Below are positions 1,528 through 61,246 of a DNA stretch of 64,000 nucleotides, in pieces. The stretch spans positions 1,358 to 65,357 of the forward strand of contig DATDVE010000023.1 in assembly GCA_036517655.1 (NCBI GenBank), in the 5' to 3' direction. The notes beneath the pieces were generated by a model. It had not been told where the DNA came from, searched no databases, and worked only from the letters and a program-made list of their open reading frames with translations. Positions within the stretch are counted from its first letter, which is position 1, and each line of letters begins with the position of its first letter. Source of the DNA: Minisyncoccota bacterium (GTDB lineage Bacteria > Patescibacteriota > Minisyncoccia > Phycocordibacterales > DATDSR01). The position numbers and the translations under genes were made by a program.

Positions 1528-3918
1528 ATGGATTATCTTACTAATAACTTTATTACGTACATGGCACACACTAAGTCCCGCGCCGCTCACAAGAATTCTG
1601 CAAAGAAATCTGCAGTTACGAAGAAAGTTACCTGGCCGAAGGAGATAACCAAGCGTGATGGGCGATTGGTGCCATTTGAACAAGAGAGAATTACTGCGGC
1701 GGTGACAAAGGCAATGGTGGCTGCGGGCGAATTCGTGATCGCGGCACCCGAACTTGTGCGTGATGCAGTTGTGGCGGAGCTCGGCAAGATGCATATGGCC
1801 AATCCCGCCTATATGCCAACGGTGGAGGCGCTCCAAGACATCGTCGAGAAGCAATTAATTTTGAATAAATTCCCGGCCACAGCTAAAGCCTACATTTTAT
1901 ACAGGCAGAAACATGCCGAGATGCGCAAGCAGGGGCGCGAGGTACCCGAGAAGGTACGCGAACTTGCGGAAGAGAGTTCCAAATTTTTCTCCAACAAACT
2001 TTCTGAACTTGTCTACTACACCACTTACTCGAAGTGGATACCGGAAGAGAATAGGCGCGAGACTTGGATCGAGACGGTGGATCGCTACATAAACTTCATG
2101 CGCGAGAACTTGGGAGATAAGTTGCGTGAGGATGAATACGCGGAAGTTCGCGATGCAATGCTACACATGCGCTCGATGGGTTCGATGCGTTTGCTTTGGT
2201 CAGCAGGACCTGCGGCACGCAAGAGCAATGTCTGCGCGTACAATTGCTCGTTCATCGCGCCGTCGTGTTGGAAGGATTTCGCCGAGATAATTTATATCTC
2301 GATGTGCGGCACAGGACTCGGCTTCTCTGTCGAGCAACAGACAGTGGGACTCTTACCTATGATCGAGCGCCAGAATGGCAAGAAGTTGGCCAATTATGTT
2401 ATTGATGATTCGAAGGAGGGTTGGGCCAATGCGCTCTGGCATGGCATGGAGACTTGGGCAGCTGGTCAGGATGTAGAATTTGATTTCTCGAAGATTCGTC
2501 CGGCCGGTGCACGGCTTGCCACTATGGGCGGTCGGGCTTCTGGCCCCGAGCCTCTGCGCAGGCTGCTTGCCTTCACGCGCGAGCGCATGCTCTCTCGTCA
2601 GGGTCGCCGCCTTACTCCGCTTGATGTGCATGACATTATCTGTATGGAGGGGGAATGTGTGGTAGCCGGTGGAGTGCGTCGCAGCGCCCTTATCTCGATC
2701 TCTGATCTTGACGATACAGATATGCGCCATGCCAAGGACGGCCAGTTCTATCTGCAGAATGCCCAGCGAGCCATGTCCAACAACTCGGCTGCTTACAACG
2801 AGAAGCCCTCTGTCGAAGTTTTCCTCGATGAGTGGAACAATTTGGTCAAATCTGGCTCAGGTGAGCGGGGAATTTGGAATCGCGGCTCGCTCAAAAAGCA
2901 ATTACCAGTGCGTAGGTGGAAGCTCTTTGAGCGTGACATGTGGCGCTCTGGCGTTAATCCTTGTGGCGAGATCGTGCTCAAGAGCAAAGAATTCTGCAAC
3001 CTAACTGAAGTTTGCGCCCGCAAAGAAGATACAGAAGATACTTTGATGGAGAAGGTCAGGATAGGTGCGATACTGGGTACGTATCAAGCAACTTTGACGA
3101 ACTTCGGTTTCTTATCACCCGAATGGAAGAAGAATTGCGAGGAAGAAGCTCTTTTGGGTGTCTCAATAACTGGCCAATGGGATTGTCCGGCCTTGCGCAA
3201 CCCTAACACGTTCAGGAAATTGAAAGAGGTTGCGATAGAAACTAACAGGGAGTACGCGACTAGATTCGGCATTAGGCCCTCTGCTGCGATTACTTGCGTC
3301 AAGCCATCCGGTAACACATCTCAACTCTTTAACTCAAGTTCTGGCATGCACCCTCGACATGCGCCTTACTATATTAGGCGAGTTCGCATAGAGGGACATA
3401 ATCCGATCTTCAAGATGCTCAAGGAAGCAGGTGTGCCGTACTTCCCTGAAGTGGGCCAGAATGTGGATACGGCTACTACCTTCGTACTCGAATTCCCAAT
3501 CAAGGCACCAGATAAATCTGTCTTCAAAGATGACATGACAGCTATCGAGCAATTGGAATACTGGAAGATGGTCAAGGAGAATTTCACCGAGCATAATCCA
3601 TCCACTACAATTTCGGTGGGTGATAGCGAGTGGTTGCAAGTAGCAAATTGGGTTTATGCGAACTGGGATATGGTAGGAGGACTCTCGTTCTTGCCACGCT
3701 CTAATCATGTCTATCGTCTGGCTCCGTACGAAGAGATAACCAAAGATCAATATGACGAATTGGTGAAGAAGTTCCCAGACCTAGACTTCGCCAAACTCGT
3801 GCTCTACGAATACGATGATGCCAATGCCAACCAAGGAGCCAAAGAGCTGGCCTGTGTCTCGGGAGTCTGCGAAGTAGATGTTTCAACGAGCGACCTGGTA
3901 AAAGAAGGCAAAGCTTAG
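1528..3918 (+). CDS. nrdJ: ribonucleotide reductase, class II (adenosylcobalamin-dependent, NrdJ-like)
   Basis: 796 aa; N-terminal ATP-cone-like segment (VTKRDGRLVPFEQERI), conserved active-site Cys context NPCGEI and CNLTE, single-polypeptide RNR length. Confidence 0.7.
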   Translation: MDYLTNNFITYMAHTKSRAAHKNSAKKSAVTKKVTWPKEITKRDGRLVPFEQERITAAVTKAMVAAGEFVIAAPELVRDAVVAELGKMHMANPAYMPTVEALQDIVEKQLILNKFPATAKAYILYRQKHAEMRKQGREVPEKVRELAEESSKFFSNKLSELVYYTTYSKWIPEENRRETWIETVDRYINFMRENLGDKLREDEYAEVRDAMLHMRSMGSMRLLWSAGPAARKSNVCAYNCSFIAPSCWKDFAEIIYISMCGTGLGFSVEQQTVGLLPMIERQNGKKLANYVIDDSKEGWANALWHGMETWAAGQDVEFDFSKIRPAGARLATMGGRASGPEPLRRLLAFTRERMLSRQGRRLTPLDVHDIICMEGECVVAGGVRRSALISISDLDDTDMRHAKDGQFYLQNAQRAMSNNSAAYNEKPSVEVFLDEWNNLVKSGSGERGIWNRGSLKKQLPVRRWKLFERDMWRSGVNPCGEIVLKSKEFCNLTEVCARKEDTEDTLMEKVRIGAILGTYQATLTNFGFLSPEWKKNCEEEALLGVSITGQWDCPALRNPNTFRKLKEVAIETNREYATRFGIRPSAAITCVKPSGNTSQLFNSSSGMHPRHAPYYIRRVRIEGHNPIFKMLKEAGVPYFPEVGQNVDTATTFVLEFPIKAPDKSVFKDDMTAIEQLEYWKMVKENFTEHNPSTTISVGDSEWLQVANWVYANWDMVGGLSFLPRSNHVYRLAPYEEITKDQYDELVKKFPDLDFAKLVLYEYDDANANQGAKELACVSGVCEVDVSTSDLVKEGKA

Positions 3919-3931
3919 TAAGCTTGTTGTA

Positions 3932-4183
3932 ATGGAAGAAAATAAAATACTTCAATCTCTGGCGGGTGTGCAAAAAAGTGTTAATGATCTTTCGAGTGAC
4001 TTACGTTCTTTCAAGAAAGAAGTAAGGGACGAGTTTACTCAAGTGCACGAAAGTCTCGCCGAACTTAAAGCCTCTGCAGGAGCCACAGACAAGATCCTTG
4101 AACAACACCCAGTAAAGAGAATAGAAAGAATAGAATCACACCTAAACCTGACAAAATTTTCACTAGAATCTTCCGACGAATAG
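3932..4183 (+). CDS. hypothetical small coiled-coil protein
   Basis: 83 aa ORF with heptad-like charged/hydrophobic pattern; no recognisable motif. Confidence 0.3.
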   Translation: MEENKILQSLAGVQKSVNDLSSDLRSFKKEVRDEFTQVHESLAELKASAGATDKILEQHPVKRIERIESHLNLTKFSLESSDE

Positions 4184-5710: not shown

Positions 5711-5747
5711 CAAAACGGACCACTTGCGCGGTCCGTTTTGATTTTTG
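5711..5747 (+). terminator. rho-independent terminator hairpin (AAACGGACC...GGTCCGTTT followed by T-tract)
   Basis: 9-bp stem, 6-nt loop, followed by TTTTGATTTTTGTTG directly after the stop of the 4544..5707 CDS. Confidence 0.6.
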
Positions 5748-6215
5748 TTGTACGTGCCTATAAGCCGGATTCTGTCCTCCCTTGCGGGATGGATAATCAT
5801 TTGTCTTGATCCGATATTGCTATCGAGATTCTTTGCGAGCACTCTGCCAATCTTGCCCACCGCAGGTGGTTGCAATGATTGAGCACCCTTCCGTAGCCTT
5901 GGCGAAGGAGGGCGGGTAACCCTACTACGCTAAAGCTTCGCAGGGCTCTCAATTTTGCAGCTGCCAGCGGCAGGCAAAATTGGAGCACGACTCTTGCACA
6001 CAGGTAAGTATTTTGCCGTTTCATCCGAACTTAATCGGTTCGTCACTGTTCGCAACTCTTGGATTGCTCCAGATGGGCATTACCCACTACCTTCTCCCAC
6101 TTCGCACAAGGCTTCGCGGGACGTGTGTCCGGACTTTCCTCCCCACTTCGCACAAGGCTTCGCGGGGCGATTATCCGGCACGTACATGATCAATTATATC
6201 ATATCTAGGCTACAA
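5745..6215 (-). ncRNA. rnpB: RNase P RNA (bacterial type), approximate ends
   Basis: Minus strand carries the universally conserved P4 halves GGAGGAAAGUCCGGAC (revcomp of 6127-6142) and ACAGAAUCCGGCUUAUAG (revcomp of 5758-5775), about 365 nt apart, which is the right spacing and order for RNase P RNA. Confidence 0.7.
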
Positions 6216-8513: not shown

Positions 8514-10214
8514 GTGGTCGCGCGTCTAACAAGAGTATTTGGTGGGCCGGTAGAAAGCTTGAACAAGGCTGCTGTCGTGCTCGGCCTCTCTGCTGTAGTT
8601 TCCCAAGTCCTGGCTTTAGTTAGAGACAGAATCTTTGCCCATATTTTTGGAGCAGGGCAGACCTTGGACATATACTACGCCGCCTTCAAGATCCCTGATC
8701 TTTTGTTCGTGTCGGTGGCCTCGCTTGTTTCTATGTCAGTTCTGATCCCATATTTTACTCGAGAACTTAAGACAGGTGATAAGAGTGCTAGGAACTTCCT
8801 TGACTCTATCTTTACTGTTTTTGTGCTGTTGCTTATCGCGCTTGGTGCTCTTGCATACTTACTCATGCCTCGACTGGCTCCTCTAGTTGCACCAGGATTC
8901 CCGCCCGAAGCTTTAAGAGAGCTTATCAATTTATCGCGGATACTCCTACTCTCGCCACTTTTCCTGGGTCTATCGGGTCACGTATCGAGCATTGTGCATT
9001 CTTTCCAGCGCTTTGGTATCTATGCTCTCTCGCCGGTGCTCTATAATATCGGCATTATTCTCGGAGCTCTTTTGTTCTACCCGTATTTTGGATTATCCGG
9101 CCTTGCCTTGGGAGTAGTGTTGGGCGCCTTCCTGCACTTTGCCGTACAATGGCCAACGGTTAGATCCGTTGGTTTTGCCCCGCGCTTACGTGCGGGAATA
9201 ATCTGGCCTAAAGTGAGAGAAGTCTTCCTCATTTCAATTCCGAGAACTTTTACTTTGGGTATCCATCAGATTGTTACTATCATATTTACCGCGGTCGCTT
9301 CAGGGATCGCCGTTGGCTCGATTTCTGTTTTTAACTTCTCCTTCAATCTACAGTCAGTGCCGCTTGCGGTCGTGGGTGTGTCATATTCAATGGCGGCTTT
9401 CCCCACACTTTCGCGACTATTTGCAAGTGGAGCGAGGCGTGAGTTTGGTATGCAGATCAGTCTTGCTGCACGGAACATTATTTTCTGGTCACTGCCCATC
9501 ACTGCACTTTTCATTGTCCTGCGTGCGCAAATAGTGCGCACTGTTTTGGGCACGGGAGCTTTTGACTGGACAAGTACGCGTCTTACGGCAGCTGCCCTTG
9601 CCCTCTTTGCTCTCTCCATACTTGCTCAGAGTTTGGTCCTACTCTTTGTACGCGGCTATTACGCCTCCGGCAACACTCGCATCCCTCTTATTATTAATAT
9701 TGTCTCGGGCGTAGGAATGATTGCTCTTGCTCTTGTTTTGATTCCTCTCTATACCAAGTCCGAAAGCTTCCGTTTCTTCTTCGAGAGCCTCTTTCGGGTC
9801 GGTGGGCTAGGGCGTGATTCAGTCGTACTCATGCTACCTCTTTCGTACAGTATAGGCATGATATGTGCCGCAGGAGCCTATGTGGTTCTGTTCTACCGGA
9901 CTTATAGAGACGAGGCTCTTACGCTTCTTCGCACACTGCGACATTCCTTCTATACCGCTGTGCTCTCTGGTCTCGTTGCGTATAAAGCTCTTGCGCTATT
10001 CGATAATTTGTTTAACCTTGAGACTCTGCCCGGTATCTTCATGCAAGGCTTGCTCTCTGGCCTCTTGGCCATAATATGCGGGGCACTTGTTCTTGTCGCC
10101 TTGCGTAACGGAGAGATAAGAGATCTATACAATATCTTGCGCAGAAAGTTCTGGAGAACCGAGGGGACTTATCCGGAAAGCGTGCCTGGTCCAGAAGAAA
10201 TAAATCAAATATGA
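8514..10214 (+). CDS. murJ: lipid II flippase MurJ (MviN family)
   Basis: 566 aa multi-TM protein; N-terminal signature LALVRDRIFAHIFGAGQTLDIYYAAFKIPDLLF matches the MurJ motif; GTG start. Confidence 0.8.
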   Translation: MVARLTRVFGGPVESLNKAAVVLGLSAVVSQVLALVRDRIFAHIFGAGQTLDIYYAAFKIPDLLFVSVASLVSMSVLIPYFTRELKTGDKSARNFLDSIFTVFVLLLIALGALAYLLMPRLAPLVAPGFPPEALRELINLSRILLLSPLFLGLSGHVSSIVHSFQRFGIYALSPVLYNIGIILGALLFYPYFGLSGLALGVVLGAFLHFAVQWPTVRSVGFAPRLRAGIIWPKVREVFLISIPRTFTLGIHQIVTIIFTAVASGIAVGSISVFNFSFNLQSVPLAVVGVSYSMAAFPTLSRLFASGARREFGMQISLAARNIIFWSLPITALFIVLRAQIVRTVLGTGAFDWTSTRLTAAALALFALSILAQSLVLLFVRGYYASGNTRIPLIINIVSGVGMIALALVLIPLYTKSESFRFFFESLFRVGGLGRDSVVLMLPLSYSIGMICAAGAYVVLFYRTYRDEALTLLRTLRHSFYTAVLSGLVAYKALALFDNLFNLETLPGIFMQGLLSGLLAIICGALVLVALRNGEIRDLYNILRRKFWRTEGTYPESVPGPEEINQI

Positions 10215-12013
10215 ATTCCATACGAAATTTTTCTATTATCGCCCATATTGATCACGGCAAGTCTACTCTTGCCGACAGGATGCTTGAATTAACGGGCACT
10301 ATTGAAAAGCGCAAGATGCGCGAGCAAGTCCTTGATCGGATGGATCTTGAGCGTGAGCGTGGCATAACTATCAAAATGCAACCAGTGCGTATGGACTATG
10401 TCCTAGGTTCTATGTCCTATGTTCTAAACTTGATAGATACCCCGGGGCACATTGATTTTAGCTACGAGGTTTCGCGAGCGCTCACGGCCGTTGAAGGGGC
10501 AATTTTACTTGTTGACGCTTCGCAGGGTATACAAGCTCAAACACTTTCTGTGCTCGAACTCGCCCGTGCCCAGAACCTGAAAATTATTCCGGTAATAAAC
10601 AAGATAGATTTGCCACACGCAGATCCAGAGAGCGTGAAAGATGAAATTGTGAAGTTGCTTGATTGCGACAGAAGTGAGATCTTAGCTGTCTCTGGCAAAA
10701 CAGGTAAGGGCGTTCCGGAATTATTGAAGGCAGTTGTTGAGCGGATTCCTGCTCCCGAGTTACCTGGTAACCAACCTGGTTACCAGGTAACCAAATCCCT
10801 ACAGGCCTTAATTTTTGATTTTTCGTACGATACACATCGGGGGATTATTTTGTTTTTGCGTCTGTTTGGGGGACAGATAAATAGATTAGACAAACTTAAG
10901 TTTGCTTCATCAGGCAAGGAATTCGGGGCGATCGAGGTGGGAGTTTTCAAACCCGACGAGTTGATCACAAACAAATTAGAGTCTGGGGAAATCGGCTATG
11001 TTGTGACGGGGTTAAAAGAACCCGGTGTGGCCAGAATCGGCGACACTATCACGAGCCAGAAGTTACCCGCTCCTGCATTACCTGGGTACGGCAGGCCGGA
11101 TCCAGTCGTGTGGGCGAGTGTCTATCCCGAGGATCAAGGGGACTTTGTCACTTTGCGCCAGGCTCTTGAACGTCTCTCCCTTTCCGATTCGTCACTCTCA
11201 TTTGAAGAGGAGAGTTCGGGAACATTGGGTAGGGGATTTAGGTGTGGCTTCTTGGGAATGCTGCACATGGAGATAATTACAGAGCGACTTAAACGCGAAT
11301 TCAACCTATCGCTCATTGTTGCCTCTCCCACTATCACATATGAGATAGAGGATCTTAAGGGGTTGCGAAGTAAAGTTTATTCAGCAATCTACTTTCCTGA
11401 TGAGGGTGCGTACAAATCTGTCTACGAACCCTGGGTAAACATTAGGATCATTGCGCCCAGTCAGTACGCAGGCGCTCTCCAAGTTCTATTCCACGAGCAC
11501 GAAGTTATCCAGACTAATATCGAGAACTGGTCCGGGGAGCGTGTGAGTGTGGAGGGCGAGATGCCTCTGCGCGAACTTATGCGCGGCTTCTTCGATGAGC
11601 TCAAGAGTATCTCAAGCGGCTATGCCTCACTCTCGTACAAAATAGGAGATATGAGGGCAGCTGATATTGCGCGTTTAGACTTACTTGTGAATGATGAAAG
11701 GATTGCCGCTTTCTCGCGAGTTGTCTCGCGTCGCAGAATCGAAACAGAAGCTAACTCTGCCGCCGACAAACTCGAAGAGTCTATCCCCAAGCAAATGATC
11801 GAAGTCAAGATTCAAGCCAAAGCGCTCGGCAGAATTATAGCTGCCCGTCGCAAATCTGCCTTACGCAAAGATGTAACAGATTATCTATACGGCGGAGACA
11901 TAACGCGCAAAATGAAGTTGCGAGAAAAGCAAAAGAAAGGCAAGAAAAAGATGCAAGCCCGCGGATCTGTCTCAATTCCCCACGAGGTGTATTTGAAAAT
12001 GACGAAATCGTGA
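10211..12013 (+). CDS. lepA: translation elongation factor 4 (LepA)
   Basis: 600 aa; MNSIRNFSIIAHIDHGKSTLADR, G-domain motifs and LepA-specific C-terminus; contains an in-frame palindromic DNA insert at 10760-10795. Confidence 0.9.
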   Translation: MNSIRNFSIIAHIDHGKSTLADRMLELTGTIEKRKMREQVLDRMDLERERGITIKMQPVRMDYVLGSMSYVLNLIDTPGHIDFSYEVSRALTAVEGAILLVDASQGIQAQTLSVLELARAQNLKIIPVINKIDLPHADPESVKDEIVKLLDCDRSEILAVSGKTGKGVPELLKAVVERIPAPELPGNQPGYQVTKSLQALIFDFSYDTHRGIILFLRLFGGQINRLDKLKFASSGKEFGAIEVGVFKPDELITNKLESGEIGYVVTGLKEPGVARIGDTITSQKLPAPALPGYGRPDPVVWASVYPEDQGDFVTLRQALERLSLSDSSLSFEEESSGTLGRGFRCGFLGMLHMEIITERLKREFNLSLIVASPTITYEIEDLKGLRSKVYSAIYFPDEGAYKSVYEPWVNIRIIAPSQYAGALQVLFHEHEVIQTNIENWSGERVSVEGEMPLRELMRGFFDELKSISSGYASLSYKIGDMRAADIARLDLLVNDERIAAFSRVVSRRRIETEANSAADKLEESIPKQMIEVKIQAKALGRIIAARRKSALRKDVTDYLYGGDITRKMKLREKQKKGKKKMQARGSVSIPHEVYLKMTKS

Positions 12014-18214: not shown

Positions 18215-18290
18215 TGGTGCCGAGGGCCGGGATCGAACCGGCGACCCTTCGCTCTTCAGGCGAATGCTCTACCAACTGAGCTACCTCGGC
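18215..18290 (-). tRNA. tRNA-Phe (anticodon GAA), CCA encoded
   Basis: Revcomp GCCGAGGTAGCTCAGTTGGTAGAGC...CTGAAGA...GGTTCGATCC...CACCA; canonical cloverleaf. Confidence 0.9.
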
Positions 18291-18359
18291 CCTGCTTCGC
18301 CCAGGCTACGCAGGGCAAGCTTGTGGACATGATTCTACCAGTTTGATAGCATGTAGGCA

Positions 18360-19955: not shown

Positions 19956-21922
19956 AACTTTTCTGGATCCTTCTCCTTTTTAGCCTCCTCGATATACTTA
20001 TCGGCAAATTCATGCCAGGTGAAGTGATAGAGCTTTTCTGCGGCAAGGTAGAATCGATAGTTATCCATATCGCTCGTTACATCTTTTGTCAGCGCCTCAA
20101 GTTCTGCAAGCAGTTTTGAGTTTTGCGCTTCCGGTTTTGAGTCCCCAGATTCGTTCTCCATAACGAATCTGGCGATGTTCCAGAGTTTGTTAGCAAAGTT
20201 CTTGTAGGCTCTAATCTTATCTTCAGAGAGCGCCAGTGACGTGCCGGGGGTGTTGCCTATAACCAGGCCCATGCGAAATGCGTCAGTGCCGTATTTAGCT
20301 GTGTAATCTAGTGGATTGATTACGTTGCCTTTTGACTTACTCATTTTCTGACCCTTCCCGTCGAGCACCAAGCCGTGAAGGTAGACAGTTTGGAAGGGGA
20401 CCTTGCCTGTAGTGTATAGGCTAAGCATGATCATGCGTGCAACCCAAAAGAAGATAATCTCGCCCGCCGTTTCCATCACATCAGTGGGGTAGAAAGTCTT
20501 GGCATCGCCATCAGGATAGCCGAGCGCAGCAAATGGCCACTGACCAGACGAGAACCATGTGTCGAATGTGTCTGTATCCTGATGCACTGTGCCCCCGCAC
20601 TTTGGGCAAGTAGAGATTTTATTTTCCAGGTCTACGTAACCTTCCCCGCACGAGTCACAGATTTTAGCCGGAATGGGGATGCCCCACACAATCTGGCGCG
20701 AAATATTCCAGTCAAGAATATTTTCTAGCCAATGAGTAGTTATTTTTTCGTAATGGTCAGGTATGTAAGTTATTTCTTTTGCTCGGATTTTCTCAAGTGC
20801 CAGTTTTGCAAGCGGCCGCATTTTCACAAACCATTGCGGCATGACCTGCGGCTCGATAAGTGTGTTGCATTTATAGCAGGTATGTACAGTGTGCTTGTAC
20901 CCTTCGTCAATCTTTTCCACCAAGCCCTTACTCGCGAGCTTAGCCACTATGGCCTCGCGCGCTTTCGATATGTGTTGTCCAGCAAATTCGCCGGCAATAG
21001 GCAGTAGCTTGCCTCGTAGGTCAATTACTTGCTCCATATCTAGATCATGCCGCTTGGCAATTTCAAAATCGGCTGTATCGTGCCAAGGAGTGATAGTCAT
21101 AACGCCCGTGCCAAACTCTTGATCAACTGCTGTATCTTTGATCACTGTCGCCTCAATCTCGCCGTTTATCCACTCTAGTTTAAGTTTTTGCCCATGTTCG
21201 TATTGCTTGTAGCGTTGATCATCTGGATGCATGACTACATACTTATCGCCAAACTTTGTTTCCGGCCTCGATGTGCTGATTGTGAATGGCCCATATTTAA
21301 GATAGTAATATTTTTCTGTGCGTTCCTCGTCTTTGATCTCAAGATCAGAGAAAGATGTTTGATGTTTGGGGCACCAGCTCACAATGCGCTTGCCTCTGTA
21401 AACCAAACCATCGTCATATAGCTTTTTGAAGGTTTTATAAACAGTTTGGACAATGTCTGGATCAAGAGTGAACTTCTCTCGCGACCAATCACAAGATGCG
21501 CCCATGCTCCTAATCTGGGACTTGATATTCTTCGAGTTCTCGAGAGTGAAGTCGAGAATTTCTTTGTAGAGATCTTCGCGGGGGATATCAAATCTGGATC
21601 GACCCTCTTTCTCCAACTTCTTCTCATAAACCACTTGAGTTTCAAATCCGGCGTGATCAAGACCAGGAAGCCAAAGTGTCTTAAATCCGCGCATGCGCTT
21701 ATAACGCGTCATGATATCTTCAATAGTCATAACCAAACCATGCCCAGCATGCAAAGAGCCGTTAGCATTAGTAGGCGGCATCAGAATAGTAAACGCCTCA
21801 CCCGAGCCATAAGGAGCAAATTTGCCAGACTTCTCCCAAAGCGAATATATCCGCCCTTCAGTCTCACTAGGGCTATAAGGCTTGGTTAATTTTTCTGGGC
21901 AATTGTTTTCCTGTGCAGCCAT
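19814..21922 (-). CDS. valS: valyl-tRNA synthetase (compact form)
   Basis: 702 aa; class I HIGH region PPTNANGSLHAGHGL (the TGSLH variant typical of ValRS), KMSKS (QKMSKSKGN), zinc-knuckle Cys pairs; lacks the long C-terminal coiled coil. Confidence 0.75.
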   Translation of the reverse strand: MAAQENNCPEKLTKPYSPSETEGRIYSLWEKSGKFAPYGSGEAFTILMPPTNANGSLHAGHGLVMTIEDIMTRYKRMRGFKTLWLPGLDHAGFETQVVYEKKLEKEGRSRFDIPREDLYKEILDFTLENSKNIKSQIRSMGASCDWSREKFTLDPDIVQTVYKTFKKLYDDGLVYRGKRIVSWCPKHQTSFSDLEIKDEERTEKYYYLKYGPFTISTSRPETKFGDKYVVMHPDDQRYKQYEHGQKLKLEWINGEIEATVIKDTAVDQEFGTGVMTITPWHDTADFEIAKRHDLDMEQVIDLRGKLLPIAGEFAGQHISKAREAIVAKLASKGLVEKIDEGYKHTVHTCYKCNTLIEPQVMPQWFVKMRPLAKLALEKIRAKEITYIPDHYEKITTHWLENILDWNISRQIVWGIPIPAKICDSCGEGYVDLENKISTCPKCGGTVHQDTDTFDTWFSSGQWPFAALGYPDGDAKTFYPTDVMETAGEIIFFWVARMIMLSLYTTGKVPFQTVYLHGLVLDGKGQKMSKSKGNVINPLDYTAKYGTDAFRMGLVIGNTPGTSLALSEDKIRAYKNFANKLWNIARFVMENESGDSKPEAQNSKLLAELEALTKDVTSDMDNYRFYLAAEKLYHFTWHEFADKYIEEAKKEKDPEKFCALRFALCDILKLLHPFMPFVTEEIWGLLGYHKDGKLLMIETWPTP

Positions 21923-22519: not shown

Positions 22520-23644
22520 TCATTTATACAGTGACAGATTGCCGCTTGCTTTGAGTTCTGCGAAGGCGGAAGTATCAGAATGAAGTAGAAACTCGGGGTG
22601 CAGATATGCTTGTCCTGCGAAGCCTAGGCGAAGTAGGGCTGCGATGCCGATCATGGTGGCATTGTCGCCCGTGAACTTCAGGTCGGGTAAGTGCAGAGCA
22701 ACCTCCCGTGGCTGACTGTCAGCCACGGGGCCGACAGTCAGCCTAAGATGATCACGAATTGTTTTATTAGCTATTACCCCACCGCCGACCAGCAAGCTTT
22801 TGGCTCCGTATTTAGTAATAGCATCAGTTGTTTTCTTGATCAGCACTTCTGTCACAGCCTGCTCGAATTCATGCGCGATTGCTATTTTTTGCTCATCTGT
22901 GAGTTCACCTTTATTTTCTTCTTTAAGTTTTTTTGCTAGATAGAGAACAGCAGTTTTTAAACCAGAAAACGAGTAATCCAAATCGCCCGAATGTAGCATT
23001 GGCCTCGGGAGCGATATTTTGATATTTGGATATTTAGATGTTTCGAAATGAGATGCTAGTCTGGAGATTTCTGGACCTCCTGGATAGGGCAAGCCGAGTA
23101 TGCGCGCAACTTTATCAAACGCTTCGCCTACAGCATCGTCTCGAGTGTTGCCAACCACTTCGTAACTACCCATCTCACGCATTAACACAAGTTGTGTATG
23201 CCCACCTGATATAAGTAATGCAATTGCCGGGAGTTCTAGTTTGCAAATTTCAAATTGCTCATTGCTCATTCGTTTCAGCAAAGCTGAAACGATATGTCCT
23301 TCCAGATGATCCGTGGCAACCAAAGGCACATTCCACTTCATGGATAATCCGCGAGCAAAGTTAATCCCTTCCCAAAGCGCCGGCTCGAGGCCGGGACCAT
23401 ATGTTACGGCAATCAAGTCAACCTTAATTCCTAATTCATTATTCATAATTCGCGCAAGAATCTCCGGCAGATTCTTGGCATGCTCGCGCTTGGCAAGCAT
23501 CGGTACCACCCCGCCCCACTCTTTGTGAACATTTATCTGACTCGAGACTTCGTGTGCAAGCACATCGAAAAGTTTGCCATCGCTAGTCTCAAGTAAAGAG
23601 ATAGCAGTCTCATCGCACGAAGTTTCTATCGCCAGAATTCTCAT
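22520..23644 (-). CDS. tsaD: tRNA N6-adenosine threonylcarbamoyltransferase TsaD (Kae1/Gcp family)
   Basis: MRILAIETSCDETAISLLE N-terminus, His-pair metal site (HLEGH), 375 aa from the ATG at 23644; the longer ORF would run into tRNA-Ser. Confidence 0.85.
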   Translation of the reverse strand: MRILAIETSCDETAISLLETSDGKLFDVLAHEVSSQINVHKEWGGVVPMLAKREHAKNLPEILARIMNNELGIKVDLIAVTYGPGLEPALWEGINFARGLSMKWNVPLVATDHLEGHIVSALLKRMSNEQFEICKLELPAIALLISGGHTQLVLMREMGSYEVVGNTRDDAVGEAFDKVARILGLPYPGGPEISRLASHFETSKYPNIKISLPRPMLHSGDLDYSFSGLKTAVLYLAKKLKEENKGELTDEQKIAIAHEFEQAVTEVLIKKTTDAITKYGAKSLLVGGGVIANKTIRDHLRLTVGPVADSQPREVALHLPDLKFTGDNATMIGIAALLRLGFAGQAYLHPEFLLHSDTSAFAELKASGNLSLYK

Positions 23645-23733: not shown

Positions 23734-23800
23734 GCAATTCGTGGCAATTCTACCAGAAAATGTTATATTTGGCTTGCCCCGCGGAGCTTTGGCGGAATGA

Positions 23801-23872
23801 GGCCCTATCGTCTAGCGGTTAGGACACCACCCTTTCACGGTGGGAACCCGGGTTCGATTCCCGGTAGGGTCG
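23801..23872 (+). tRNA. tRNA-Glu (anticodon TTC)
   Basis: Acceptor GGCCCTA/TAGGGTC, anticodon stem CCACC/GGTGG with loop CTTTCAC, T-arm CCGGG-TTCGATT-CCCGG. Confidence 0.8.
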
Positions 23873-25494: not shown

Positions 25495-25585
25495 GCGCGA
25501 TCGCTGGACACAGCAGCCGGGGACCCAAGAGGGTACCCGGCTGCGATTCGTTTACAATTTACTTTATCCACACACTCGACTTGCT

Positions 25586-25607
25586 ATGGTGTACGATCGT
25601 ACACCAT
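25586..25607. promoter_or_regulatory. perfect 22-bp palindrome ATGGTGTACGATCGTACACCAT, candidate LexA operator (SOS box)
   Basis: Perfect dyad 12 nt upstream of the lexA-like start; GTAC-N4-GTAC core resembles non-E. coli LexA boxes. Confidence 0.5.
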
Positions 25608-25618
25608 AATTCTTATAT

Positions 25619-26209
25619 ATGGCGATGAAGGAAGGAAAGAGGAGTTTGGGGGAGGTGGTGGGGAAACTGCGCGGCTTTTATCTTGCTCACAGACGTTTGC
25701 CTAGTTATTCTGAATTTGCCAAGGAAATTGGTGTGCGCTCTAAAAACGCGGTGCTCAAGTGGATGCATAAGTTAGAAGATGCGGGGTTCGTTAAGCAAGA
25801 CTCTCGCGGCAGAATATCTCTGGGCGAGAACTTCGCTGGTGTGCCACTTTTGGGTGTGATTGAAGCGGGTTTCCCCACGGGTGCGGAAGAAGAGGTGCTC
25901 GGTACACTTAGTCTTGACTCATACTTGATCAAAAACCGCGAGGCAACTTATGTGCTCACAGTGAAGGGCGACTCGATGATAGACGCTGGTATCCGCGAGG
26001 GCGACATGGTTATTGTTGAGCGCGGAGTAGAGGCAAAAAGTGACGATATTGTGATTGCAGAAATAGACGGCGCGTTTACGATGAAATACTACCGGAAACG
26101 CGGCAGAGAAGTGTCGTTAGAGGCAGCGAATAAGAAGTATAAAACTATCTTCCCAAAAAATGATTTAAAAATTACTGCCGTAGTACGAGCAGTTATCAGA
26201 AAATATTAG
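25619..26209 (+). CDS. lexA: LexA-like transcriptional repressor (winged HTH + S24 peptidase)
   Basis: 196 aa; N-terminal DNA-binding region, C-terminal S24 fold with Ser in VKGDSM and downstream Lys (MKYYRKRG). Confidence 0.75.
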   Translation: MAMKEGKRSLGEVVGKLRGFYLAHRRLPSYSEFAKEIGVRSKNAVLKWMHKLEDAGFVKQDSRGRISLGENFAGVPLLGVIEAGFPTGAEEEVLGTLSLDSYLIKNREATYVLTVKGDSMIDAGIREGDMVIVERGVEAKSDDIVIAEIDGAFTMKYYRKRGREVSLEAANKKYKTIFPKNDLKITAVVRAVIRKY

Positions 26210-26304: not shown

Positions 26305-27549
26305 TTGCAAATTAAACCATTGAATCATTTAGTTCTTCATGTAGACGGCGATGCGTTCTTCGTGGGTTGCGAGCTTACGCGCCGGCCGGACTTGCGGGGC
26401 TTGCCTGTTGTTACCGGCGCGGAGCGGGGGATTGCCTCGGCCATGAGTTATGAGGCAAAAAGACTGGGTGTAACTCGCGGCTACCCAATATTTAAGTTAC
26501 GCAAAGACTTTCCTCAAGTTATTGTGCTGCCAGGCGATTATGAATTATATGAGCAGATGGCTATGCGCATGTACTCAATAATGAGCAGGTTTAGCGACAA
26601 AGTCGAAGAGTACAGCATAGATGAATGCTTCGCCCTGCTTCGTCAAGACTACGCAGGGCAAGCTCGTGAAATTAAAAATACTTTGCAGCGCGAGCTGGGT
26701 ATGACATTCTCTTTCGGCCTTGCGCCTACTAAAGTTCTGGCCAAACTGGCGAGCAAGCGCGATAAGCCAGACGGTTTAGTTTGTGTGTCGCGAGAAAATA
26801 TTGAGCGAGAGTTATATGGCATGAGTATAGAGAAAGTGTGGGGCATTGGCCCGCGCAGTCTGCCGCTATTACATGCTCTGGGTGTGCACACTGTAGGTGA
26901 CTTTGCTGCGCAAAACGAGCAGTGGGTGCGCACACATTGGAATGTGAACTTTCTAGATTTATGGCACGAGATTAGGGGCGAGCAAGTTTACAAAGTAGGG
27001 GAAGGTGATCTTGCTAAACATAAGTCAATTCAAAAGACGCGCACATTCTCGCCCTCTACCAACGATCCCGCAGTGCTTATGGGCCAATTAGCTAAAAATA
27101 TAGAAAACGCATTCGGTTATGCGAGGTCACTTAATCTTGCCGCGAGCGGGGCAAGCGTGTTCATTAAAACAGATAAATTCGGCTACCGGGTAGCCGAATT
27201 TAAGTTCTCTTCACTTACTCAAACCCCGGAACTACTGCTTGCAAAAGTTCGCGAGCGATTACCCAAATTAATCAAAAAGAGCGAGAAATACAGAGCCACA
27301 GGCGTCACTTTGTTGAATTTACTGGAGGTGAGTCCTCCACTTGGAGGTCTCACCTCCAAACCAGATCTCTTCGGCGACTTCGCAAAAAAAGAGAGTCAGT
27401 TAGCTGTGCACCAAGTTGCTGATAAATTATATGAGAAATATGGTGGCAGAGTGCTAACCGTGGGAAGCGCGCTAGCCTCGAGGCACCTAGGCAAAGTGCA
27501 ATCCGCAAGATCAAACCTAGGCCTTCCGTATCTAGGCATTGTGTGCTAG
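26305..27549 (+). CDS. Y-family DNA polymerase (DinB/Pol IV or UmuC-like)
   Basis: 414 aa; catalytic start LHVDGDAFFVGCE, SIDECF acidic motif, little-finger region; directly downstream of lexA. Confidence 0.8.
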   Translation: MQIKPLNHLVLHVDGDAFFVGCELTRRPDLRGLPVVTGAERGIASAMSYEAKRLGVTRGYPIFKLRKDFPQVIVLPGDYELYEQMAMRMYSIMSRFSDKVEEYSIDECFALLRQDYAGQAREIKNTLQRELGMTFSFGLAPTKVLAKLASKRDKPDGLVCVSRENIERELYGMSIEKVWGIGPRSLPLLHALGVHTVGDFAAQNEQWVRTHWNVNFLDLWHEIRGEQVYKVGEGDLAKHKSIQKTRTFSPSTNDPAVLMGQLAKNIENAFGYARSLNLAASGASVFIKTDKFGYRVAEFKFSSLTQTPELLLAKVRERLPKLIKKSEKYRATGVTLLNLLEVSPPLGGLTSKPDLFGDFAKKESQLAVHQVADKLYEKYGGRVLTVGSALASRHLGKVQSARSNLGLPYLGIVC

Positions 27550-34736: not shown

Positions 34737-34765
34737 AGAACTTAGGACCCGGAGTCCTAAGTTCT
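34737..34765. repeat. REP-like hairpin AGAACTTAGGAC-CCGGA-GTCCTAAGTTCT at the 3' end of the RAYT gene
   Basis: 12-bp inverted repeat overlapping the stop codon of the 34765..35412 CDS. Confidence 0.8.
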
Positions 34766-35412
34766 TACTCTTCATTAAATAATTCTTGAAGTTCTTTGTA
34801 CGATGCCCTTTTTTCGATCATGAATGGAAGATTGTCTAAGCAAAAATTTTCAAACTCTCTATTTTTCGTGAATTGTTCGAGCAAAATATCCTTCTTACAC
34901 AACCCTCGTGCATTTTGCGTATATTCATTCCAACTTGAACGGACAAGCTTGTTACTCTCTTCATTAAGTTGGTGAACACGGTTGTTCAGATTTACATATG
35001 CAGCTGAATGGAGAAAGTAATCGTTATCAGAAATGTGTTTTGACTTGAATCTCCCTGGGAAAAGAGTCCCAGAACGTTTGTGCCGATTATTGAAATATTT
35101 AACGTATCCACCTATTTGTTTGTTCATGAACAAACTGATGCCGCCCTCAACTATTTCCTCTAAAATAAAGTGGAAGTGGTTAGGGTTAAGGCAATAACAA
35201 ATAATGTTAACTAATGGAGAGACATCGTCCCTTTTATTGCCCGCAAAAGAGTTCGAGTAAATGCTCTCGATAGGTTCTATCGTATTGAATTCTGCCAATC
35301 CTTGCACGAACCTGTCAGAGTCTTTACTATCAATTACAATATTCCGTTTATCTACACCACGATTATAAATGTGATAGAACTCTCCAACAGCAAAAGCTTC
35401 TTTCCTAACCAT
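34765..35412 (-). mobile_element. HUH-Y1 transposase gene, REP-associated tyrosine transposase (RAYT)/IS200-like, copy 1
   Basis: 215 aa; HUH motif NPNHFHFIL and catalytic Tyr region SAAYVNLN; flanked on both sides by CTTAGGAC-N5-GTCCTAAG hairpins; paralog at 39208..39855. Confidence 0.75.
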
Positions 35413-35424
35413 ATTCGTATTATA

Positions 35425-35447
35425 ACTTAGGACTCCGGGTCCTAAGT
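35425..35447. repeat. REP-like hairpin ACTTAGGAC-TCCGG-GTCCTAAGT upstream of RAYT copy 1
   Basis: 9-bp inverted repeat 13 nt upstream of the RAYT start. Confidence 0.8.
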
Positions 35448-39180: not shown

Positions 39181-39205
39181 CACTTAGCGCCCAGGGCGCT
39201 AAGTG
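39181..39205. repeat. REP-like hairpin CACTTAGCGCC-CAG-GGCGCTAAGTG at the 3' end of RAYT copy 2
   Basis: 11-bp inverted repeat; identical copy at 39869-39893 and a degenerate copy at 39385-39417 inside the CDS. Confidence 0.8.
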
Positions 39206-39207
39206 TT

Positions 39208-39855
39208 TTATTCATTCATCAAAATTTCCTTCAATTCAGCGTAGTCATCTCTTTTACGTATCATCTCGGTAAGTGCATCAAGTGCGAAGATCCTATAGTC
39301 ATCTTTTGAATCAAACTGTTCAAGCACTATTTCCTTTGCGCAAATACCTTGAATATTTGTCGTATATTCTAACCAACTCGATCTCACCAACTCAGCGCCC
39401 TGGGCGCTAAGTTGGTGGACTCGGTCGTTTAGGTTTACATAGGCGCTTCCATGAACCAAATGTTCATTCGTTGTTATGTGCTTGGCCCTGAACGGCCCCT
39501 GGAAAAGTGGCCCGCTACGTTTATTTTTCTTGTTAAAGTACCAGGAATATCCTCCCATCACTTTCATCATAAATTTACTGATACCGTGATCCGCGATTTG
39601 CTTTAAAATAAGATGAAAATGGTTTGGGTTGATGCAATAAGCAATTATCTCAACAAGAGGGTCACTCTTCTTAATTTTGTTCTGATTAGAAAAATTTAAT
39701 TCGTAAAGACCACCTTCTGGCTCGACCTGGTTGAATATATCGATGCACGTTACCAATCTTTCCGAATTTTCGGGTGTCATAACGATTTGCCTTTTGTCTA
39801 CACCTCTATTAAAGACATGATAAATTTCACCAGGAGCCAAGTTTTGTTTTCTCAT
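39208..39855 (-). mobile_element. HUH-Y1 transposase gene, RAYT/IS200-like, copy 2 (start trimmed to align with copy 1)
   Basis: HUH motif NPNHFHLIL, Tyr region SAYVNLN; about 50% identical to copy 1; the annotated longer ORF would translate through the upstream hairpin. Confidence 0.75.
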
Positions 39856-39868
39856 GTGCGAATGATAA

Positions 39869-39893
39869 CACTTAGCGCCCAGGGCGCTAAGTG
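39869..39893. repeat. REP-like hairpin CACTTAGCGCC-CAG-GGCGCTAAGTG upstream of RAYT copy 2
   Basis: Identical to 39181-39205. Confidence 0.8.
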
Positions 39894-43253: not shown

Positions 43254-43526
43254 GTGAACGAGTACTTAGCCGCAGTTCCCGCGGCAGTGGGCAAGATCAA
43301 GACAGAGATCGTCAACCCTATACTGAAGCTCTTGATTGCGCTTGCTGTAATATACTTCCTCTTCGGGGTGGTTAAGTACTTTATTGGTGCGCGCGAGAGG
43401 GCTGATTCGCAAGGCGCGGCCGAAGGCAAGAATCACATGCTCTGGGGTATCATAGGTGTAGCTATTACTATCTCGGCCTTCGGCATAGTTAATCTGATCG
43501 CAAGTTTCGTCGGGGAGGTAAGTTAA
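43254..43526 (+). CDS. two-TM pilin-like protein, paralog 5
   Basis: 90 aa; GARERADSQGAAEGKNHMLWGIIGVAITISAFGIV. Confidence 0.55.
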   Translation: MNEYLAAVPAAVGKIKTEIVNPILKLLIALAVIYFLFGVVKYFIGARERADSQGAAEGKNHMLWGIIGVAITISAFGIVNLIASFVGEVS

Positions 43527-43699
43527 CCCTGTTTCGCCCCACTTCGCTAAAGCTTCGCGGGGTCATTTTGCCAGCAAAATGAAAAACAGCCTTCGCGCCG
43601 TTCCCCTCCCAGCTTATGGCGGGGAAGTGACGGAGCGAAGGCCGTGACTTGAGACAAATGGTCCAGGAGAACGTGAGCGGGGGCGTGCTCGTGGCCGGG

Positions 43700-44713
43700 T
43701 CATGGGTAGAGCCGCATCTGGCCGTGACTGGGGCTCTCCGAGACCCAACAAGGGGTACCCTCGCAGATGCCGTCGTGACAGCAGTTCTCGTCCCAGCGCA
43801 TTGTGATAGCTTCACCCCTGTCTCGTGTCCCGTCGCGGTTCACGATCCAGCCCGTTCCCTTGCCGGCACCCTCCTTCCAAACCACGTGGCCGGTGTCGCC
43901 TTCCACGGTGGTGAGAGTGTAATGTTGCCAGCCTGGGCTATCCGCGACCTTGGTGAGGTCGAAGCGCCCATCCTGGTTCTCGAGGAACTGCGCGACGATA
44001 TGTCTCGTCGGCTTCGGGAGTTCGAACCCGAGCGCTGTTGGTGGAGCCGGTAGCGGCTGCTCGTCGGGGATGTGCGGAAGAACGTTTGCCCATCGCGCCA
44101 GTCGCCGGCCTTCCTTCTCCTCATTCACGGCCTGTGCCTGCTTGACGAGGTCGCGAACGGCTTGATGCCGAGTCGCCGTATCCTTGCCGCGGGCGACAGT
44201 CTCGACTCCGCGGACGACCTTCTTTCCCGTCTCGTGCACAGTGTCCGCGCTCGGCCAGGCCACCATCCTCGCCAGGTTCGCGAGTGCGACGACCGCTATG
44301 ATGAGGCCGGCGTACTGACGCAGCTTCCCCGGAGGAAAGACAACGCCGAGACCGATGTAGGCGACGAACAGAACGCCGCAGAGCAGGAAGCCGTAGCGGT
44401 TCTGCTCCGTCTTGAAGACGAGCACGAAGGTGCCGTAGGTGACCCCCAAGAAATAGGGGAACCACAGCAAGCGAACGAGCATCGCCACCGCCCGAATGTA
44501 GGGGATCTGCGAGGCGAGGGCGACGCCGGTGAAGAAGAGGGCCACGATCGTCGGGGAGATGAACACCACGACGAGCGGAAGAAAGATGTAGACGAGCGTC
44601 AGGACGAGTGCGGGTGTGTCCCAGCCCCACAACCCGCAGGCCGTGATGGCCGCGAGCATGGCGCCGAAGCCGATGATCGTCCACTGTCCGATTGAATCGA
44701 GATACGTTCTCAT
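43700..44713 (-). CDS. hypothetical polytopic membrane protein with Cys-rich C-terminal domain (high-GC island)
   Basis: 337 aa; about 6 TM helices then a soluble domain ending in ...CCHDGICEGTPCWVSE; GC content far above flanks. Confidence 0.45.
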   Translation of the reverse strand: MRTYLDSIGQWTIIGFGAMLAAITACGLWGWDTPALVLTLVYIFLPLVVVFISPTIVALFFTGVALASQIPYIRAVAMLVRLLWFPYFLGVTYGTFVLVFKTEQNRYGFLLCGVLFVAYIGLGVVFPPGKLRQYAGLIIAVVALANLARMVAWPSADTVHETGKKVVRGVETVARGKDTATRHQAVRDLVKQAQAVNEEKEGRRLARWANVLPHIPDEQPLPAPPTALGFELPKPTRHIVAQFLENQDGRFDLTKVADSPGWQHYTLTTVEGDTGHVVWKEGAGKGTGWIVNRDGTRDRGEAITMRWDENCCHDGICEGTPCWVSESPSHGQMRLYP

Positions 44714-45121
44714 TTAGTACCTCCTTCTCCTGATGGGTGGTAGGGGTGGGACTGGCTGGCCGACCGGTCGTGACCGGAAGTACGGCAGCTTGTTGACCAG
44801 CCCCATGAACAACCTGACAGGGCTGATCCGTCGGCCGATCTCGGCCATCTCGCGATCGAAATCCGCGATGGGCTCGGCGACCTTGTCGAAGATCTCGCGA
44901 CCCTGCGCCTTGGCCGTGTCCCAGTCTGGGACACTCTCCCCAACGATGGCCACGAAGCCGTCGTCAGAGCGGCGATCGAGCGCTCTCTTGAGCGCCTCCG
45001 GATCAGAACAGATCCGATCCCAACGCTCCGCCCAGACTTTGAAGCGCTTCAGGAACTTCTCCTGATACGCACCCTCGTCGGTCTTGGCGATCTGGGTGAG
45101 ACTCTTGTCTTTCGTTGGCAT
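44714..45121 (-). CDS. hypothetical protein (high-GC island), start trimmed to the internal ATG
   Basis: 136 aa from MPTKDKSL; charged, helical; the longer ORF overlaps the upstream gene. Confidence 0.35.
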   Translation of the reverse strand: MPTKDKSLTQIAKTDEGAYQEKFLKRFKVWAERWDRICSDPEALKRALDRRSDDGFVAIVGESVPDWDTAKAQGREIFDKVAEPIADFDREMAEIGRRISPVRLFMGLVNKLPYFRSRPVGQPVPPLPPIRRRRY

Positions 45122-45134
45122 GTCTCTCCTCCTT

Positions 45135-45473: not shown

Positions 45474-45722
45474 TTTTCCTTTCTAGATTTAGGACCATTT
45501 GTCAGCGTCCTTGATCTACCCTCAATTATATCACATATTAATACGAAATGCAAGCCCACTTCGCCGATAGGCTTCGCGGGCCACAGGGTTGGGGATAAAC
45601 TGCTTTCTGTGGCTTATTTATGGGGTAAAATTGTGTATACTTGTCCCGTTAGAAGTTACGGTGATTATCTAACGAGATTTTATAAAACCACATAATATTA
45701 CTATGCATAAACTTCTAATGGG

Positions 45723-61163: not shown

Positions 61164-61246
61164 TGCCGGAGGAGGGACTTGAACCCTCACGCCCTTGCGA
61201 GCACAGGATTTTGAGTCCTGCGTGTCTGCCATTCCACCACTCCGGC
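61164..61246 (-). tRNA. tRNA-Leu (anticodon CAA)
   Basis: Revcomp GCCGGAGTGGTGGAATGGCAGACACGC-AGGAC-TCAAAAT-CCTGT, long variable arm, T-arm GAGGG-TTCAAGT-CCCTC. Confidence 0.85.

Follow-up and report, generated by a model that had tools for sequence, protein, structure and literature searches.

Examination of a 64,000-nucleotide stretch of contig DATDVE010000023.1 from a Minisyncoccota bacterium (the whole stretch is hereinafter called the window) revealed a family of short palindromic repeats, which we denote the GCGAAG hairpin. The element is an imperfect hairpin of about 30 nt that forms a repeat family spread across the candidate phyla radiation (CPR) of bacteria, occurs in both orientations within protein-coding genes as well as RNA genes, including the gene for the RNA component of RNase P (rnpB), and has been gained in individual lineages. 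We consider it probable that these are copies of a dispersed repeat family of CPR that propagates at the DNA level, resembling the repetitive extragenic palindromic (REP) sequences in its organization and the Rickettsia palindromic elements (RPEs) in its in-frame occupancy of genes, and that the rnpB copies are insertions into, or replacements of, peripheral helices of the ribozyme. An earlier note on this DNA had listed six copies (5921-5945, 6096-6120, 6142-6166, 43537-43562, 45555-45580 and 61247-61270), all of which are present at most 1-2 nt from these positions; the third of them had been given as 6141-6167, and the copy itself holds with its span refined as above. The copies found beyond these six are those in tsaD, in dinB and in the leader of tRNA-Phe, the antisense copy in rnpB, and two decayed copies, in tsaD and in the leader of tRNA-Glu (Table 1).

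Structure of the hairpin and significance of its copies

In RNA letters, the best-folding strand of the element reads UGYCCYGC-GNA-GC(N)-loop(4-6)-(N)GC-GAA-GURGGRYA. A basal stem of 7-8 bp, usually with one G.U pair, is followed by a symmetric 3x3 internal loop, in which G-N-A lies opposite G-A-A with C-G pairs flanking it on both sides, and then by an apical part that consists of a GC stem of 2-3 bp and a loop of 4-6 nt. The first and third positions (G1 and A3) of both strands of the internal loop and the G.U pair are strongly conserved, and the middle base of the loop varies (GAA, GUA, GGA, AAA); such a loop can hold two sheared G.A pairs with a variable pair between them. The G.U pair, previously taken for the closing pair of a shorter hairpin of about 25 nt, is actually the second one down from the internal loop. 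The GCGAAG half-site occurs twice in direct orientation, with a spacing of about 11 bp. The folding energy is -12 to -18 kcal/mol for the sense strand versus -3 to -13 kcal/mol for the antisense strand.

The pattern CTTCGC-N2-9-CTTCGC has 6 matches in the window versus 0.12 expected, a count that none of 100 shuffled sequences attained. A covariance model (R1) made from 43 copies identifies in the 64-kb window nine strong copies (E-values from 1e-10 to 5e-4), one at an E-value of 0.027 and two decayed ones; the seven obvious copies score 39-47 bits, with E-values of 1e-8 to 1e-10. With the core fixed by the search pattern, it is the flanking and apical pairs that are informative for covariation: pair 3-30 is CG in 23 copies, UA in 13 and GC in 3; pair 6-27 is CG in 33 and UA in 8; and pair 14-19 is UA in 17 and CG in 15. 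In total, 93.5% of the cells are paired, compared with 31-46% after the 3' partners are slid along. Given that the stem pairs covary, with C-G to U-A replacements in three pairs, the hairpin is genuine.

A search of Rfam found no family that matches any copy of the hairpin, either at the gathering scores or at E-values up to 1. Several known structures were considered and rejected. A kink-turn needs a C-stem, a 3-nt bulge on one strand and tandem G.A/A.G pairs, whereas the internal loop of this element is symmetric (3x3) and enclosed by C-G pairs on either side; a bulge-helix-bulge splice site was rejected from the sequence, given that the two 3-nt strands are located opposite each other; and an integron attC site, a CRISPR repeat and an intrinsic terminator do not fit an element of only 30 nt that is not arrayed and in most copies lacks a U-tract.

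Copies in the RNase P RNA gene, tRNA leaders and protein-coding genes

The rnpB gene contains four copies (A to D in Table 1). The identification of this gene, on the minus strand, is borne out by the RNaseP_bact_a model, and P4 is conserved, although the score falls just under the gathering score. The RNase P RNAs of CPR commonly score below the Rfam thresholds, with helices extended or missing (PMC8172020). Copy A is placed by the RNase P model exactly where the earlier note had it, in the position of P3. Copy B is an unaligned 23-nt insertion in that model, at the site where type B RNAs have P5.1. The two copies are indeed a direct repeat, identical over 25 nt, but they start 46 nt apart rather than the 50 nt proposed. 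Copies C and D, separated by 3 nt, comprise an inverted doublet (5884-5947). A long, perfect-looking hairpin, CUCCAAUUUUGCCUGCCGCUGGCAGCUGCAAAAUUGAGAG, at 5948-5995 beside this doublet makes up the remainder of the insertion of about 110 nt in the P15-P17 arm.

In other rnpB genes, the copies occupy a variety of positions. At the site after P5, one related locus (L163) carries a copy as in the window and another (L168) has an unrelated AT-rich palindrome instead; the latter gene contains an element copy in place of P15. Two further genes (L141 and L161) have an antisense copy just 5' of the 3' P4 strand. An RNase P RNA of high GC content that is canonical in other respects (L158, 226 bits) has two tandem copies in opposite orientations in its P3 region; this arrangement (L142/L158) is an inverted doublet resembling that of copies C and D. 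The rnpB of a Saccharibacteria member (L073) combines an ordinary P3 with an element copy near the 3' part; this gene, at 3473-4164, is 692 nt long, about twice the usual length, and scores only 40.6 bits with RF00010, with large insertions that include the one element copy. A scan of metagenomes for the 3' half of the element directly followed by the universal P4 strand yielded 37 loci, about 17 of which (11 or more different sequences, belonging to at least two clades) are rnpB genes with P3 built as the element, a set that is biased inasmuch as the search pattern demands the sense motif; some of these P3 helices have apical extensions capped by GNRA tetraloops. When rnpB was sought beside the homologues of its window neighbor gene in four relatives, it was not syntenic there. 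The presence of rnpB copies at differing positions and in both orientations argues for repeated insertion, at the DNA level, into tolerant helices.

Three copies in the window end at or overlap the first nucleotide of a tRNA, namely, those at tRNA-Leu-CAA, tRNA-Phe and, in decayed form, tRNA-Glu. The copy at tRNA-Leu-CAA, whose adjacency to the tRNA had been pointed out before and agrees with the ARAGORN prediction (61164-61246, minus strand), ends at or overlaps tRNA position +1 and is 30 nt from the start of the divergent parB gene; the final 3 nt of the tRNA-Phe copy are positions 1-3 of the tRNA. The corresponding leader copies are absent in the relatives compared, that is, for tRNA-Phe in L123, L124 and L126, for tRNA-Glu in L123 and L124, and for tRNA-Leu-CAA in L126. 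In the relatives, the leaders of these tRNAs are short, rich in AT and provided with a -10-like box; in the window, the element occupies the space between such a box and tRNA +1. Relative to these leaders, the window's copies look like clean additions of about 27-30 nt. The adjacency to tRNAs requires no special function because the leader is dispensable in a compact genome and is removed by RNase P. No strong copy was found in a sample of related Paceibacterota DNA (about 57 kb) retrieved without reference to the motif, compared with nine in the 64 kb of the window.

In CPR loci, the element is often located deep within long open reading frames, and Pfam domains run across it in GAPDH, MiaA, a MiaB-like radical-SAM enzyme and UvrC. 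Likewise, in the window, the element resides in frame inside tsaD and dinB; in dinB, which encodes a Y-family polymerase with a Pfam IMS domain at residues 13-151, the copy is antisense and is translated as FALLRQDYAGQ. Among the coding copies, including those of the window, nine are antisense and one is sense with respect to the mRNA. The net gain in protein length differs between genes, amounting to 3-4 residues in MiaA, 6 in TsaD and 0 in DinB. Only some TsaD orthologues contain the segment encoded by the element, and in the 3' part of tsaD of L123 (6920-7030), a second, 33-nt copy with the stem variant CCUCC/GGAGG is nested in the first. This nested copy is in frame and adds PPSHKASGGHS to TsaD; no copy is present in L124. 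In dinB of L123 (1980-3203, minus strand), after EEYSIDECFAL, a perfect palindrome of the same length, TCCCCGAGG-ACGGT-CCTCGGGGA, is located exactly at the site of the window's element. Thus, where clean pairs of filled and empty sites were expected in coding genes, other palindromes at the site or variable net lengths were found instead. The pattern of the same site being occupied by a different hairpin is seen in dinB, in the nested tsaD copy and at the post-P5 site of rnpB, suggesting that existing hairpins are preferred targets or are overwritten.

Table 1. Copies of the GCGAAG hairpin, the rnpB gene and the Y1 transposase genes in the window
Feature	Position	Strand	Context and remarks	Score
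rnpB, bacterial type A RNase P RNA	5745-6186	-	diverged CPR form; full model 1-367	RF00010 95.9 bits (gathering score 100), E 8.5e-30
Copy D	5884-5914	+	antisense to rnpB	R1 17.2 bits, E 0.027
Copy C, GAA/GUA variant	5918-5947	-	sense; P15-P17 arm of rnpB, inside the ~110-nt insertion	R1 41.6 bits, E 4.6e-9
Copy B	6093-6123	-	sense; extra hairpin right after the P5 5' strand of rnpB	R1 39.1 bits, E 2.2e-8
Copy A	6139-6169	-	sense; whole P3 hairpin of rnpB, aligned to P3	R1 40.1 bits, E 1.2e-8
Element copy	18288-18317	-	tRNA-Phe leader; GUA/GAA, G-C replacing G.U	R1 28.9 bits, E 1.5e-5
Decayed second copy, weak	22554-22592	+	tsaD C-terminal tail	R1 13.5 bits, E 0.27
Element copy	22611-22640	+	inside tsaD (22520-23644, -); antisense, in frame ALLRLGFAGQ	R1 44.4 bits, E 7.9e-10
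Decayed copy GGA/GGA, weak	23775-23804	+	tRNA-Glu leader; covers tRNA positions 1-4	R1 8.1 bits, E 8.5
Element copy, apical GU/AC variant	26631-26660	-	inside dinB (26305-27549, +)	R1 23.6 bits, E 4.5e-4
Y1 (HUH) transposase 2, IS200/RAYT-like	34765-35412	-	hairpin-bracketed span 34737-35447	
Y1 (HUH) transposase 1, IS200/RAYT-like	39208-39858	-	hairpin-bracketed span 39181-39893	
Intergenic copy	43535-43564	-	low-coordinate border of high-GC stretch, between convergent genes	R1 46.9 bits, E 1.6e-10
Intergenic copy	45552-45583	-	beyond high-coordinate border of high-GC stretch	R1 41.1 bits, E 6.3e-9
Element copy	61243-61272	-	tRNA-Leu-CAA leader	R1 42.3 bits, E 3e-9

The two intergenic copies are located near a stretch of about 1.9 kb (43560-45400) with a GC content of 60-66%, versus about 48% elsewhere. 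The earlier note had the motif bracket this stretch, which is accurate for one border; the other copy is about 150 nt outside. The stretch contains two minus-strand open reading frames (43700-44713 and 44714-45226) without a Pfam match and may be horizontally acquired. Genes for proteins similar to type IV secretion system (T4SS) pilins are present on both sides of it, at 43254-43526 and 46370-47146. The window is from a CPR bacterium, with T4SS-type pilins, a short LeuRS and 13 tRNAs in 64 kb, and one of its encoded proteins is 100% identical to a protein that NCBI annotates under "Candidatus Paceibacterota bacterium".

Phylogenetic spread and associated palindrome families

A scan of genomes, one per species, was performed with the core and the 3' stem of the element. 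Among the matches listed (120 loci), the complementary 5' stem is present in 38, versus about 3 by chance, and the mean GC content of these is 0.43; the other 82 of the listed matches lack the stem, have a GC content of 0.65 and resemble chance matches in coding DNA. The listed matches with the full stem come almost entirely from CPR, including Saccharibacteria, Berkel-, Nomura-, Woese-, Woyke-, Staskawicz-, Zambryski- and Peribacteria, and Paceibacterota. The few full-stem matches outside CPR belong to a Phenylobacterium metagenome-assembled genome (MAG), a Lentisphaerae contig, in which the copy again adjoins a tRNA, and low-GC MAGs assigned to "Gammaproteobacteria". In one contig of such a low-GC MAG (CAYHHA010000014.1; loci L011 and L045), a duplicated mosaic of more than 270 nt has the GCGAAG hairpin as its first unit and consists of different palindromic units, each located after GTCAT and one of them dRS3-like, ATTCCCGCGGAGGCGGGAAT; this organization resembles that of bacterial interspersed mosaic elements (BIMEs). 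A scan of viral contigs detected the full stem in 2 of 52 matches, which is about the chance level, and so offered no indication that phages act as a vector.

Palindromic repeats of several families are present in this genome, the GCGAAG hairpin being just one of them. The window contains 24 perfect hairpins (arm of at least 9, loop of at most 7) versus about 1.5 in shuffled sequences, a 16-fold excess. Many of these are translated in frame as part of housekeeping genes, for example, lepA (10759-10791), leuS (20145-20172), tsaD (22705-22729), dinB (27174-27202), xseA (59475-59497) and miaA (59951-59969); others are at 36256, 47530 and 63966. The visible families include ACTTAG...CTAAGT, GGTTACC...GGTAACC and CCTGCCTGC-GCAGGCAGG. 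Separately, a perfect 24-nt palindrome, TATGGTGTACGATCGTACACCATA, at 25585-25608 is located 11 nt upstream of a gene for a LexA-like protein (Peptidase_S24; 25619-26209), which is followed by the Y-family polymerase gene; this palindrome resembles an SOS operator. In L131, a related Paceibacterota contig, we also noticed a sub-threshold match to the type III hammerhead ribozyme at 9033-9088 (35.2 bits versus a gathering score of 48.5, E-value 5.5e-4).

The window encodes two Y1 (HUH) transposases that are 51% identical to each other and are similar to those of IS200 and to the REP-associated tyrosine transposases (RAYTs). They match Pfam PF01797 (Y1_Tnp) with 26.4 bits against a cutoff of 23, and the motifs of this superfamily, HUH (YCLNPNHfH) and the tyrosine motif (SaYvNLN), are at least 90% conserved in 120 homologues; the best NCBIfam match is "REP-associated tyrosine transposase", at 28.9 bits, which does not reach the cutoff of 80. 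The family comprises more than 1800 homologues, mostly from Paceibacterota/Parcubacteria. A sequence search of the PDB with the transposase-like open reading frame yielded nothing useful. The two genes and the orthologue in L126 are each closely enclosed by perfect hairpins of their own, arranged as an inverted pair; the hairpin is CACTTAGCGCCC-A-GGGCGCTAAGTG in the case of transposase 1 and ACTTAGGAC-CCGGA-GTCCTAAGT in that of transposase 2. A longer variant of the transposase 1 hairpin is located within that gene (39385-39417). The families to which these flanking hairpins belong are also dispersed inside xseA, lepA and miaA. Systems of hairpins and Y1 transposases that reach into genes are therefore present in this genome; however, none of the transposases seen has the GCGAAG hairpin at its flanks, and a tie to that family is conjectural. 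The 3' arm of the element contains GUAG or GUGG, for comparison with the conserved tetranucleotide that REPs have at the hairpin foot (GTAG in E. coli), and its 3' half, GCGAAGTG, resembles GCTAAGTG of the hairpin flanking transposase 1.

Interpretation of the repeat family

Among the known systems, the closest in organization are the REPs, BIMEs and RAYTs of Enterobacteria and Pseudomonas. REPs are extragenic and species-specific. Like the GCGAAG hairpin, a REP is an imperfect hairpin, of about 30-35 nt, with a basal stem, an internal mismatch loop, a short apical stem and a loop of about 4 nt; strand preference stems from G.T/G.U pairs, the density is about one copy per 6-8 kb, and mosaic clusters occur. 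With regard to inverted doublets of the REPIN type, two adjacent ones are seen for the CPR element (5884-5947 in the window and the P3 region of L142/L158), most of its copies being singletons. The presence of hairpin-bracketed IS200/RAYT-like Y1 transposases in the window genome adds to the resemblance. Unlike REPs, however, the CPR element is not confined to extragenic DNA, being found in tsaD, dinB, rnpB and the genes for GAPDH, MiaA, UvrC and the MiaB-like enzyme; it also keeps the same core across CPR phyla, and in the loci collected, no Y1 transposase gene with this hairpin at its flanks was found.

With respect to RNase P RNA, two further comparisons are relevant. The K-turn, in which an asymmetric bulge of 3 nt precedes tandem G.A/A.G pairs and which is bound by L7Ae in archaeal RNase P RNA, is similarly a small internal loop with sheared G.A pairs that recurs in RNase P RNA and other RNAs, such as archaeal rRNA and small RNAs. 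The loop of the present element differs in being symmetric (3x3), copies are found also in antisense orientation and in coding sequences, and no binding protein is known for it. Copy B is reminiscent of P5.1 of the type B RNAs of Firmicutes, an extra hairpin between P5 and P7, and there is a precedent for repeats in this molecule, namely, the genome-wide short tandemly repeated repetitive (STRR) sequences in peripheral helices of cyanobacterial rnpB. Here, in contrast, the RNA is type A according to the covariance model, and what forms the extra hairpin is one copy of a dispersed repeat, in whose place L168 has an unrelated palindrome. The RPEs, palindromic repeats of a reduced genome that are often inserted in frame in unrelated housekeeping genes and add a short peptide to the product, are the closest counterpart with regard to coding genes (PMC10969869). 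RPEs are about 150 bp long, fall into ten families and are confined to Rickettsia (PMC10969869), whereas the CPR element, at about 30 nt or 10 residues, is five times shorter, extends over the superphylum and recurs in RNase P RNA and tRNA leaders.

As a repeat family of this kind, the element would produce copies at the DNA level that land in either orientation and would last only where they cause little harm, that is, in intergenic regions, in leader nucleotides removed by RNase P and in the peripheral RNase P helices (P3, the post-P5 site and the P15-P17 arm). In proteins, the copies would be tolerated in frame in surface segments, mostly in antisense orientation, which gives a weaker hairpin in the mRNA. 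In rnpB, the four copies would then represent insertions into, or replacements of, tolerant helices rather than a dedicated device of RNase P. The P3 copy, being common to the window, L163 and L168, is old and perhaps co-opted as P3. As to the means of spread, handling of the single-stranded DNA hairpin by a Y1 transposase of the IS200/RAYT type, possibly with existing hairpins as preferred targets, is a tentative suggestion that we regard as possible rather than likely.

Several observations weigh against a DNA-level repeat. In none of the collected loci was a Y1 gene found beside the GCGAAG hairpin by tblastn and a profile hidden Markov model, the source genome being represented by its 64-kb window. 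No target-site duplication is seen, and the coding copies are not constant insertions of 30 nt but entail net gains of 0, 3-4, 6 or 11 residues; as for the hallmarks that miniature inverted-repeat transposable elements bear, no direct repeats flank the copies in the element alignment or the tRNA-leader insertions, and the 8-bp stem could serve as the inverted repeats. The nearest other genomes, with only about 55-70% protein identity, are too distant for a strain-level comparison of filled and empty sites. Distant CPR phyla share an identical core, GCGAAGC...GCGAAGU, whereas the hairpins that flank the Y1 genes differ even between paralogues with 51% identity; such constancy would be more typical of a functional site, with the caveat that the genome and metagenome searches required the exact core, so that it is in part due to the search. 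Finally, sense orientation prevails among the copies located in RNA genes and in tRNA leaders, and the P3 copy of rnpB is about as conserved as the neighboring P4 strand.

The last of these points are what would be expected if the element were a functional RNA module, consisting of a helix, the GAA/GAA loop and a second helix, which is bound by a conserved protein or RNA partner and acts in RNase P RNA, pre-tRNA leaders and untranslated regions, the coding and antisense copies being by-products. The recruitment of a structured RNA module was one of the explanations offered in the earlier note, which had also taken the minus strand to be the functional one. The strong conservation of the loop positions and the G.U pair next to a variable middle base, the element-type P3 in at least 11 distinct rnpB genes of two or more clades, some of them GNRA-capped, and the much more stable fold of the sense strand are all consistent with such a module, as is the P3 copy itself, whose sequence in the window, L163 and L168 agrees at about 28 of 31 nt, compared with about 66% column identity over rnpB as a whole. 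However, copies occur on both strands of the window, the two coding copies there are antisense to the mRNA, as are nine of the ten coding copies overall, and antisense copies are present within rnpB itself in the window, L141, L161 and L158. Furthermore, the relatives lack the tRNA-leader copies and the copy number is strongly lineage-specific, L073 combines an ordinary P3 with a copy elsewhere, L168 has a different palindrome after P5, and the set of P3 helices was collected with a pattern that requires the sense motif. We therefore consider a general RNA module unlikely; recruitment is possible for the conserved P3 copy but does not account for the others.

Less probable still is a signal at the DNA level, for instance, one for uptake or recombination or a site to which a protein binds, that builds up by biased gene conversion and overwrites existing sequence rather than being inserted. 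CPR bacteria presumably rely on taking up DNA, and the replacement of a segment of equal length in dinB, the small net gains of 3-6 residues in MiaA and TsaD, the occurrence in both orientations, also within genes, and the directly repeated half-sites about 11 bp apart would suit such a signal. Against it, the compensatory C-G to U-A changes in three stem pairs indicate that pairing is maintained and not just the sequence, repeated origin of a motif of about 22 positions by point mutation is unlikely, and the leader copies look like clean additions; to our knowledge, each of the uptake sequences described so far is restricted to one family or genus, and none is shared between phyla. The att-like target that had also been proposed has no support, and of the explanations put forward at that time, the small REP-like repeat family is the one that the evidence favors. 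Chance resemblance, with the rnpB copies representing canonical P3 and P5.1 helices and the others noise, is already refuted and retains virtually no probability: one copy does take the P3 position, but it is the only one that the RNase P model aligns, a P5.1 is lacking in type A RNase P, in whose model copy B stays unaligned as an insertion, and the copies outside rnpB are highly significant, with the match count of the window reached in none of the shuffled sequences, R1 E-values down to 1e-10 and the hairpin recurring in dozens of CPR genomes. More far-reaching possibilities, which even taken together appear distinctly improbable, are that the GAA/GAA hairpin is a CPR-wide RNA recognition module with a dedicated partner, either a protein or the same module in another RNA, which in P3 and 5' of tRNAs would couple the ribozyme to some of its substrates or regulate their processing, with selfish dispersal being secondary, or, as a variant, that templated, hairpin-targeted overwriting of hairpin by hairpin continually remodels the loops of CPR proteins and RNAs.

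The GCGAAG hairpin probably belongs to a kind of repeat that is already known, REP-like and RPE-like, and in the literature searched, we found neither a prior description of this family nor a link between RAYTs or REPINs and CPR. The repeat interpretation helps explain why the RNase P RNAs of CPR are hard to detect and appear diverged: the extra sequence consists in part of repeat copies, and P3 itself can be one. Masking or modelling such hairpins should improve both the detection of rnpB and the reading of odd insertions of 9-11 residues in CPR proteins. More generally, even the most streamlined bacterial genomes hold tiny families of palindromic repeats within essential protein and RNA genes, and the element described here is a source of short peptide and helix insertions. 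If the P3 copy is indeed functional, a selfish hairpin would have been co-opted into a ribozyme.

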